Source: an uncultured Oscillospiraceae bacterium
GTDB taxonomy: Bacteria > Bacillota > Clostridia > Acetivibrionales > DTU013
Reading direction: 5' to 3'
DNA length: 64,000 nucleotides
NCBI GenBank assembly: GCA_964512095.1
Contig: CAZEIH010000004.1
Coordinates: 34,919 to 98,918, forward strand
Part shown: positions 8,179 to 45,668 of the stretch, piece after piece
Layout of the letters: every line of letters begins with the position of its first letter
How positions within the stretch are numbered: position 1 is the stretch's first letter
Notes under the pieces: generated by a model
Databases searched by the model: none
What the model saw: only the letters and a program-made list of their open reading frames with translations
What the model was told of the DNA's origin: nothing
Program-made: the position numbers and the translations under genes

Positions 8179-8342
8179 TCGGGAACCCTCTTTCTACAAA
8201 GCTAATACTATTTTTGACATAGCATATGATTATTTTTCATCCAATATATTCTACACAAAAAAACATCTGCCGTAAAGCAAGTTCAACAATCAAAAAACAA
8301 CATCCTTCTACTGCTGCCTCTGTGTCACCCCTTTTCATCATT

Positions 8343-8404
8343 TTATCTATGTCTTCACTCAATGCCGATCCATAGCAGTCAGCGTCTTCTGAAGACATAA
8401 ATAA
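8343..8404. repeat. Inverted pair of the repeat-end motif (ttatctatgtcttca / tgaagacataaataa)
   Basis: The arms at 8343-8357 and 8390-8404 are reverse complements at 14 of 15 positions. The same motif ends the 128-bp repeat at 8557-8571 and at 45542-45556. Confidence 0.6.
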
Positions 8405-8444
8405 AAAACCGGCATAGCCGGTCAAACTCAAACCACGCTATGCC

Positions 8445-8572
8445 GATAGTCAATTCGCTTCGCTCAGAGAGTCAGGTGGAGACTGAACATCACCTGACCA
8501 AGAAAGTTAATTAATTTGTCTTCATTCATCGCCGACCTATAAAGGTCAGCGTCTTCTGAATACACAGATAAA
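8445..8572 (+). repeat. Interspersed ~128-bp structured repeat, copy A
   Basis: Aligns by eye to the reverse complement of 45541-45668 at about 110 of 128 positions, including a ~38-nt perfect core. It contains hairpins gtcaggtg...cacctgac and cgccgacct-ataa-aggtcagcg. Confidence 0.85.
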
Positions 8573-8600
8573 ATCCCTAAGACTGGCTTTTATCAAAACA

Positions 8601-44133: not shown

Positions 44134-45489
44134 CTATTCCATATCATCCTCCAAGATTGCATCCTCTGCTATATCTGCCGAGTCTGCTTCGTCACCTACT
44201 TCTGCTTCATCTGCTTCTTCTGCTTCTTCTGCTTCTTCTGCTTCATCTGATACATCATCCACGTCAGTTGCATCAACTGTGTCTACTTCATCTGCCACAT
44301 CAACTGTGTCCTGCTCTGTATCTTCGGTATTATCTTCATATCCTTCATACTCGCCATTATATTCATCTTCGTATTCTTCGTACTCATCCTCATAGTTATT
44401 TTCGCTATTATTGTAGCTATCCATGTTGAACATTTGTTGTTCAATGACAGCTCTGAGCTGTGACTCGCTCTTGATGTCAATCTTCCAGCCTGTTAACCTG
44501 GCAGCTAGCCTTGCATTCTGGCCTTCCTTGCCAATAGCCAATGAAAGCTGGAAATCAGGTACAATTACCCTTGCTGTCCTAGCTTCATCATCCACGTCAA
44601 CACGTACTACCTTTGCAGGACTAAGGCTGCTTGATATATATTCCTCTGGATCACTACTCCATCTAATAATATCAATCTTTTCACCTCTAAGCTCATCTAC
44701 TATGGCTTGGACTCTAGTACCCTTTTGTCCAACACATGCCCCTACAGGATCAACATTAGAATCTCTTGAATAAACTGCTATCTTAGTCCTTGAGCCAGCC
44801 TCTCTTGAAATGCTTTTTATTTCTACAGTCCCGTCGTGTATTTCAGGCACCTCAAGCTCAAATAGCCTTTTCACAAGCCCTGGGTGTGTCCTGGACACAA
44901 GTACCTGGGGGCCTTTTGTGGTTTTTTTGACCTCAACTATATACGTCTTTACCCTGTCATTAAACCTATATTCCTCACTATTAGTTTGCTCAGGCGGTGT
45001 CATAATAGCTTCTGTTTTTCCCAGATCTATAATAATATTTTTTCTTTCATTCCTCTGAATGATACCTGTTATGATATCTCCTTCCTTATTATAAAACTCT
45101 TCAAAAATAATACTACGCTCTGCTTCGCGTATTCTCTGCATAACAACCTGCTTAGCGGTCTGGGCTGCAATCCTTCCGAATTTTCGAGGTGTAACCTCTA
45201 TCTCTGCAATGTCCTCCTCCGCATATGAAGTATCAATCTTCCGAGCCTCGTCCAATGATATATCTCCATTTTCATCCTCAGGCGTCGATGTGACTCTCTT
45301 GAGTGCAAAGACCTTCACATCTCCCGTCTCACGACATATATGGATTCTTACATTCTGCGTTGATCCAAAATTCCTCTTATAAGCAGAAATAAGGGCAGCC
45401 TCAATGGCTTCCACCAAAATTTCCTTATTTATTCCTCTCTCTCTTTCCAGTTGATCCAATGCTTGAATCAGTTCCGCACTCATTCTCAT
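44134..45489 (-). CDS. nusA: Transcription termination/antitermination factor NusA with ~90-aa acidic tail
   Basis: NusA N-terminal domain, S1 and two KH domains (GACVGQKGTRVQAI, LAIGKEGQNARLAARLTGWKIDI). The C-terminus is a D/E/Y-rich tail. Confidence 0.96.
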   Translation of the reverse strand: MRMSAELIQALDQLERERGINKEILVEAIEAALISAYKRNFGSTQNVRIHICRETGDVKVFALKRVTSTPEDENGDISLDEARKIDTSYAEEDIAEIEVTPRKFGRIAAQTAKQVVMQRIREAERSIIFEEFYNKEGDIITGIIQRNERKNIIIDLGKTEAIMTPPEQTNSEEYRFNDRVKTYIVEVKKTTKGPQVLVSRTHPGLVKRLFELEVPEIHDGTVEIKSISREAGSRTKIAVYSRDSNVDPVGACVGQKGTRVQAIVDELRGEKIDIIRWSSDPEEYISSSLSPAKVVRVDVDDEARTARVIVPDFQLSLAIGKEGQNARLAARLTGWKIDIKSESQLRAVIEQQMFNMDSYNNSENNYEDEYEEYEDEYNGEYEGYEDNTEDTEQDTVDVADEVDTVDATDVDDVSDEAEEAEEAEEADEAEVGDEADSADIAEDAILEDDME

Positions 45490-45540: not shown

Positions 45541-45668
45541 ATTATCTATGTCCTCATAATACGCTGACCTCTATAGGTCGGCGATGAATGAAGACAAATT
45601 AATTAACTTCCTTGGTCAAGTGGAGTTCAGTCTCTACCTGACTCCCTGAGCGAAGTGAAATGACTTGC
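45541..45668 (-). repeat. Interspersed ~128-bp structured repeat, copy B (inverted relative to copy A)
   Basis: Its reverse complement aligns to 8445-8572 at about 110 of 128 positions by eye. It fills most of the 178-bp rimP-nusA spacer and abuts the rimP stop codon. Confidence 0.85.

Follow-up and report, generated by a model that had tools for sequence, protein, structure and literature searches.

In a 64,000-nucleotide stretch of DNA from an uncultured Oscillospiraceae bacterium (hereafter the window, meaning the whole stretch that was analysed), we identified two full-length copies of a gene-less interspersed repeat of ~120 nt that almost certainly belongs to a non-autonomous family mobilised in trans. 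The family was undescribed before and is a gene-less repeat of an already known kind; an exact-sequence search of the literature returned no paper with the sequence. We consider the chances about even that its members are PATE-like, gene-less derivatives of the IS200/IS605 type.

An earlier note on this DNA, made from the letters alone, had claimed that 8445–8572 resembles the reverse complement of 45541–45668 around a perfect core of ~38 nt. Both claims were borne out. By blastn within the 64-kb window, 8330–8600 had a minus-strand match of 127 nt at 45665–45539 (88.2% identity, E 3e-42), which pairs 8448–8572 (+) with 45541–45665 (−) at 88% identity, and pairwise alignment gave a core of ~38 nt identical in the two copies, named here A and B. 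Copy A is 93.6% and copy B 92.8% identical to the family consensus. The two hairpins that the note had seen by eye were recovered at 8471–8498 and 8530–8551, and its statement that a conserved ORF is lacking agrees with the consensus, which has stop codons in 6/6 frames and no ORF. The copies, their parts and a further remnant in the window are as follows.

8448–8567, plus strand: body of copy A, full-length (AGTCAATTC...ACACAG), from alignment and nhmmer profile positions 1–124
8568–8572, plus strand: ATAAA pentanucleotide adjoining copy A (complement TTTAT), probably target DNA and not element
8452–8512, plus strand: long hairpin with imperfect pairing that forms domain 1 of copy A, from folds of the copies and the consensus on both strands with RNA and DNA parameters
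8471–8478 / 8491–8498, plus strand: top stem of domain 1, GTCAGGTG / CACCTGAC
8518–8563, plus strand: domain 2 of copy A, from folds
8518–8524 / 8557–8563, plus strand: outer stem of domain 2, GTCTTCA / TGAATAC
8530–8538 / 8543–8551, plus strand: inner hairpin of domain 2, CGCCGACCT / AGGTCAGCG, with one C.A mismatch
45546–45665, minus strand: body of copy B, full-length, in the rimP-nusA spacer, from blastn, alignment and the nhmmer profile
45541–45545, minus strand: ATAAT next to copy B, the target pentanucleotide with one mismatch to ATAAA
13108–13138, minus strand: remnant in the murF-mraY spacer, 31 nt from the domain-2 end (GAGGTCGGTGTCTTCTGAAGGCATAG+ATGAA), from blastn and nhmmer (E 5e-4 to 2e-3)

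Copy B starts 2 nt past the rimP stop codon and sits inside the rimP-nusA operon transcript. It is kept in strains whose RimP is 98–100% identical to that of the window (L035, L040 and L042) and is missing from relatives at 85–90% RimP identity, in which the rimP-nusA spacer measures 77–86 nt vs 178 nt; four loci of 13–20 kb from these relatives contained no copy of the repeat. By its RimP relatives, the host is placed with Acetivibrionales/Ruminiclostridium-like Clostridia. The copy B orthologues in L035 and L042, from strains ~98% identical overall, differ at 9–10 of 125 positions, clustered in domain 2, and the DNA directly beside copy B (spacer and coding) is identical in both. Hypermutation or gene conversion was considered as a cause and rejected: with the strains ~2% apart overall, ~8% is about what neutral change would give in an element that codes for nothing. 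The divergence is compatible with neutral drift, and conversion from other copies may also account for it. As a separate observation, the NusA encoded next to copy B (44134–45489, minus strand) ends in a C-terminal tail of ~90 residues that is acidic, repetitive, rich in Asp/Glu and unusually long; the NusA of the relatives at 85–90% RimP identity (397–416 aa) lacks it. Elsewhere in the window, a T-box leader (RF00230; 1374–1610, plus strand; 112.8 bits, above the gathering score) is unrelated to the repeat. The 31-nt remnant takes up most of the murF-mraY spacer, and the mraY start codon is the ATG of ...CATAG/ATGAA; the remnant/target junction therefore gives the start codon context of an essential gene.

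The region around copy A turned out to be more complex. The earlier note had read 8343–8572 as one block with ~16-nt terminal inverted repeats; we found instead a composite of three parts, namely full copy A and the two features below.

8342–8405, plus strand: partial copy A', domain 2 only, a near-perfect palindrome, from the repeat search, nhmmer profile positions 70–124 and the fold
8407–8423, minus strand: sigma/anti-sigma operon terminator of the intrinsic type (GACCGGCTATGCCGGTT, then a T run), between A' and A and outside the repeat, from the promoter/terminator scan

The block appeared to have terminal inverted repeats because a palindromic partial copy adjoins a full one. A' is bordered by TTTAT on the left (8342–8346) and ATAAA on the right (8401–8405), and folds with a z-score of −5.5 to −5.8. 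Its inverted arms (8341–8357 / 8390–8406; 17 nt, 94% complementary) are the recurring and inverted 3' end motif that had been noticed by eye, and the 16-nt exact direct repeat reported with it proved to be part of a direct repeat of 57 nt (8350–8406 vs 8517–8573, 81%). Reverse-complementing the right end of A', target pentanucleotide included, yields its left side (TTTATCTATGTCTTCA), and A' looks like the outcome of hairpin-templated 'perfecting' or of a fusion of two left ends.

The size of the family was assessed by pattern and profile searches. A degenerate exact pattern over the inner hairpin had two matches among 185,579 species-representative genomes, one in a Bacillota MAG, where ispG and an M50 protease gene flank the copy, and one in a Clostridiales MAG, where the copy comes after a pseudouridine synthase gene. 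In metagenomes, the same type of pattern returned 29 loci, three of them chance matches and 26 real, and 25 of the 26 came from one anaerobic-digester metagenome (LSQX01). A profile search with nhmmer gave ~45 copies, or ~39 once orthologous duplicates were removed, with the consensus AGTCAATTCGCTTCGCTCAGGGAGTCAGGTGGAGACTGAACTCCACCTGACCAAGGAAGTTAATTAATTCGTCTTCATTCATCGCCGACCTATAGAGGTCAGCGTCTTCTGAAGACATAG (125 nt as first aligned; the element proper is ~120 nt). Several copies at unrelated loci are 98–100% identical to the consensus, and presence or absence of copies differs between related lineages. The consensus had no match among plasmids and phages by BLAST, and three pattern scans of viral contigs gave no match beyond chance.

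The window's own genome seems to hold more copies than the window does. Three Logan short-read contigs with 100% identity to the window break off in the copies (L005 ends at 8476, L043 starts at 8504 and L041 ends at 45589), and one such contig ends in a further copy 3.6 kb beyond the window start. Since contigs of this genome end in copies, it is evidently rich in them, and since short-read contigs stop inside copies, the repeat is one cause of assembly fragmentation in this organism. In strains, contigs covering the copy A and B loci either contain the element or break within it.

All copies of the family are intergenic, with sharp ends and flanks that are unrelated between loci. In relation to the flanking genes, both neighbours share the strand of the element in 10 copies and both lie on the other strand in 10, and the arrangement is mixed in a further 10. 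The consensus folds into two adjacent long imperfect hairpins on either strand, with RNA or DNA parameters: domain 1 spans nt 5–65 with a top stem of 11 bp, and domain 2 spans nt 71–116, its outer stem being GTCTTCA/TGAAGAC and its inner stem CGCCGACCT/AGGTCRGCG. On either strand, folding is stronger than in shuffled sequences (z −2.5 to −5.0). GC content is 45.6%, vs 41% for the window. There are no terminal inverted repeats, the 5' end AGTCAATTCGCTTCGC not being complementary to the 3' end ...CTGAAGACATAG. A GCGAAGC mini-hairpin near the right end was tried as a feature and rejected, the stretch being among the most variable.

Deleted derivatives are frequent: 13 copies are internally deleted and keep both termini, truncated copies are also present, and a deletion of 21 nt recurs at several loci. 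At one locus in strains 98.4% identical, L008 has the full element (1863–1987) and L002 (284–387) lacks 21 nt (CAAGGAAGTTTAATAATTCGT); as this deletion is seen at other loci, it is either recurrent or the copies convert one another. In both contigs, the frame of an upstream pseudouridine-synthase-like ORF continues into the element as far as a TGA in the hairpin 1 loop, where it ends. In L013 (2268–2420, minus strand), a partial internal tandem duplication of ~38 nt (CGCTTCRCTCAACTCCAYYTGRCCAAGGAAGCTAACTAA) accompanies loss of the 5' arm of hairpin 1. Copies can also cluster, as in L022 (1–10550), where five copies or fragments lie in one orientation within 10.5 kb among genes of both orientations that include those for a J-domain protein, a vWA protein and an adenylosuccinate-synthetase-like protein. 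The last is probably the one among 127 flanking genes that matches the phage family phrog_1211, '2-aminooxy adenylosuccinate synthetase' (E 1e-55). The genes around copies (127) and in the window (56) are ordinary chromosomal genes, and among the Pfam (top 25) and PHROG families listed for these 56 window and 127 locus genes there was no recurrent transposase family beside the copies.

The insertion junction was read from a single pair of digester contigs, L023 (filled) and L021 (empty), which are 93% identical over 3.2 kb. With a slash marking the insertion point, the empty site is ...TCTTTTTTA/ATAAATTAATG, or in a longer reading ...GGAGTCTTTTTTA/ATAAATTAATGTG..., and the filled site, with the added DNA in parentheses, is ...GGAGTCTTTTTTA(TTT-AGTCAATTC...GAAGATATAG)ATAAATTAATGTG... 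Thus 101 nt were added in L023 before an ATAAA that L021 already has, and nothing was duplicated; the right-hand junction of L023, with three extra bases (TTT), is not perfectly clean. As ATAAA is present in the empty site, it is probably target DNA and the element proper ~120 nt. ATAAA lies next to the body in 34 of 39 de-duplicated copies; four others are one base off, and L020, a 5'-truncated remnant, is two bases off. Across the 39 copies, conservation does not extend beyond ATAAA or into any part of the opposite flank, and flank duplications are absent. We infer from these sequences that insertion occurs directly 5' of ATAAA, that is, 3' of TTTAT on the complementary strand. Other loci were less suited to this comparison: the TadA locus is filled in all four contigs; the CorA-locus contig is the same strain as L022, a run of N being the sole difference; and at the copy B site of the empty relatives (85–90% RimP identity) and the rseP-ispG site of L001 the spacer is too diverged to place junctions.

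A fixed, unduplicated pentanucleotide, no inverted termini, subterminal hairpins and gene-less copies mobilised in trans are together the signature of IS200/IS605. PMC3201880 and PMC6006769 set out single-strand transposition in this family as worked out for IS608, and TTTAT is the experimentally defined target of ISGst2, an IS605-family element of a Firmicute whose genome also has gene-less PATE-like derivatives (PMC10055086). On this model, a transposase encoded elsewhere in the genome, most probably an IS200/IS605-family TnpA of the Y1 HUH type, would move the element in trans. The element, taken on its complementary strand, would lie 3' of its target TTTAT, and its left-end hairpin (CGCTGACCT-CTAT-AGGTCGGCG) would be bound as folded single-stranded DNA. 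Pairing of AAGA at the hairpin foot with TTAT would set the site of cleavage and insertion. During replication the element would then be released as a circle of single-stranded DNA, and its re-insertion would take place 3' of a different TTTAT, of which no duplicate would be made. Effects on neighbouring genes, such as the presence of copy B in the rimP-nusA transcript and the supply of stop or start codons, would be by-products.

Several features converge on this mechanism, each weak individually, among them the guide match and a strand bias. On the complementary strand, the left end of the element, with the hairpin in parentheses, reads TTTAT/CTATGTCTTCAG-AAGA-(CGCTGACCT-CTAT-AGGTCGGCG)-AT... 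At the left end of IS608, TTAC pairs with AAAG at the hairpin foot (−4:G2, −3:G1 and −1:G4), which leaves the third target base (A) without a partner, and behind the hairpin comes an AT (PMC3201880). TTAT and AAGA would form the same three pairs, with the unpaired A and the trailing AT both present, a post hoc match for which two hairpins were available; at guide position three the element has G, where IS608 has an A that it inserts into the protein. By analogy with the IS608 rule (PMC3201880), the complementary strand of domain 2 would form the left-end hairpin, and AAGA lies directly 5' of the foot of this hairpin. On this strand, the common hairpin variant is a T.G wobble instead of a C.A mismatch. 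Local GC skew, with clustered copies included and duplicates removed by hand, shows a modest bias: in 27 of 38 copies the complementary strand of the element is the one that is locally richer in G, which is the expected lagging-strand template. Copies A and B lie in opposite orientations on the same replichore; the putative active strand is the minus strand for A and the plus strand for B.

The right end and the enzyme are less favourable to this assignment. Under the IS608 rule, several assignments of guide and motif at the right end fit by chance, with no unique solution, and the candidates for a right-end guide and cleavage motif were dropped for that reason. The end hairpins are unlike (CGCTGACCT-CTAT-AGGTCGGCG vs GTCAGGTGGAG-TTCAGT-CTCCACCTGAC), having by inspection of the consensus only the string GGTCAG/CTGACC in common, in swapped arms. 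In ~350 kb of the lineage, no Y1 transposase, TnpB or full-length parent element was seen. Because the hairpins differ, the right end is unassigned and neither TnpA, TnpB nor a parent was seen, we hold the IS200/IS605 assignment to be only as probable as its opposite.

A less probable but credible explanation is that the repeat is of the bcr1 type, or an unclassified non-autonomous repeat, moved by a recombination-like mechanism outside IS200/IS605 that uses TTTAT/ATAAA. The bcr1 repeat (group A) of the Bacillus cereus group is ~155 bp long, forms two independent stem-loops, is gene-less and intergenic, is tied to TTTAT motifs and has a mechanism described as unknown (PMC3184786, PMC6199540, PMC6542083). 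The present repeat thus shares its architecture and pentanucleotide, and dissimilar hairpins with a missing TnpA fit an unclassified enzyme as well as they fit IS200/IS605. However, bcr1 has TTTAT as 5-bp direct repeats on both sides, in contrast to the one-sided, unduplicated motif seen here, and the layout of the left end would agree, by a post hoc match, with the IS608 rule. It is unlikely, in turn, that the element is a minimal IS605-type PATE whose transcript acts as a stand-alone omega-RNA for a TnpB in trans, or that a new single-strand transposase of the HUH type, able to recognise two hairpins that differ, uses it as substrate. In the omega-RNA variant, a complementary-strand transcript reading through the right end (...GAATTGACT) into the flank would yield a scaffold with a flank-derived guide. 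If either proved true, the element would be more than a passive parasite.

Slightly less probable still is a functional structured RNA, be it a cis-regulatory module, an mRNA-stabilising module or a small RNA gene, with copies kept for their fold. The excess folding of both strands over shuffles and the two long hairpins of the consensus are what such a module would show, copy B lies within an operon transcript, and the most frequent variant of the hairpin, a C.A mismatch when read from one strand, pairs as a G.U wobble when read from its complement. Yet the even split of orientations relative to genes argues against it, and the element has no conserved promoter or terminator inside it. Among 30 copies, RNAalifold and pair counting found no covariation beyond shuffles (pairing 84.8% vs 84.8% in shuffled controls); at 87% column identity the copies are too alike, so covariation is uninformative and not negative. 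Wobble and mismatch changes in hairpin 1 are divided between the strands, and G.U vs C.A changes are accordingly mixed as a clue to the functional strand. In Rfam, nothing reached the gathering score, and at E ≤ 10 no family appeared beyond chance miRNA and snoRNA hits far below threshold. The suggestion of a mobile RNA-structure module in the earlier note, for which it had proposed covariation and Rfam checks, therefore found no support. A local duplication or chance similarity can be set aside in all practical terms: the window does hold only two full copies, but their similarity has an E of 3e-42 and the copy count that the note had proposed came to ~40 distinct copies, spread over further contigs and MAGs at loci unrelated to one another, with sharp ends and no target-site duplication, which rules out its refuting case of only two copies genome-wide.

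The family adds a set of small mobile repeats in uncultured cellulolytic-type Clostridia from anaerobic digesters, and accounts for fragmented short-read assemblies of these genomes. It is also a warning for annotation, as spacers such as rimP-nusA and the one upstream of polA hold parasitic DNA and not regulatory RNA, and the repeat can serve as a marker for strain typing. If the IS200/IS605 assignment is true, the element would offer a compact natural substrate (~120 nt, TTTAT target) for mobilisation by TnpA in trans and possibly a supply of guide RNA to TnpB, and the TTTAT-linked bcr1 of Bacillus would be worth re-examining in the same light.

Compared with known systems, several classes share single traits with the family. 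MITEs and other small repeats (Correia/NEMIS, ERIC, RUP, BOX and SPRITE) are likewise short, base-paired, multi-copy and intergenic, with deleted or modular variants, and SPRITE likewise has no demonstrable target duplication. By definition, MITEs carry terminal inverted repeats and target-site duplications, and most are AT-rich (PMC3049150). The present repeat has neither, and its GC content lies slightly above that of the window; it is therefore not a MITE in the strict sense. From the earlier label 'MITE/REP-like non-autonomous element', the non-autonomous and interspersed part stands (~40 copies, deleted derivatives, presence/absence differences and no recurrent transposase among the families listed for the flanking genes), and the strict MITE part falls. 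REP/REPIN sequences with RAYT (TnpA-REP) are likewise extragenic palindromes, which a Y1 HUH enzyme is believed to process in the form of folded single strands. PMC3733652 describes REPs as 20–40 bp units with a GTAG or CGTC head; a unit of 120 bp with two different hairpins and no such head at its 5' end rules out REP identity. By eye, attC-like, IS607-like, IS110-like, IS91-like and retroposon-like elements had no supporting feature beyond the missing terminal inverted repeats and target-site duplications.

The two closest comparisons are bcr1 and the PATEs. Compared by description only, bcr1 is likewise a Firmicute repeat in the range of ~120–155 bp with two stem-loops ('cruciform-like'), non-autonomous, intergenic and associated with TTTAT. 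It differs in having TTTAT repeated on both sides and compensatory changes in its RNA, as opposed to a one-sided motif and no covariation here, and in its host, the Bacillus cereus group as opposed to uncultured Acetivibrionales-like Clostridia. PATEs, such as those of Geobacillus stearothermophilus that share ends with ISGst1-5 (paradigm IS608), likewise lack terminal inverted repeats and target duplication, and have a fixed pentanucleotide that stays at one end, TTTAT being the target of ISGst2. They too have subterminal hairpins at both ends, are gene-less and occur in many intergenic copies, and the left end of the present repeat would fit their guide/target pairing rule by a post hoc match. 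In PATE and IS608-type elements, however, left and right hairpins resemble each other, unlike those found here; no TnpA, TnpB or parent IS was seen in our case, ~120 bp is very short, and the spacing between target and guide is 12 nt vs 15 nt in IS608. The element thus works like a PATE and may be one, and it looks like bcr1.
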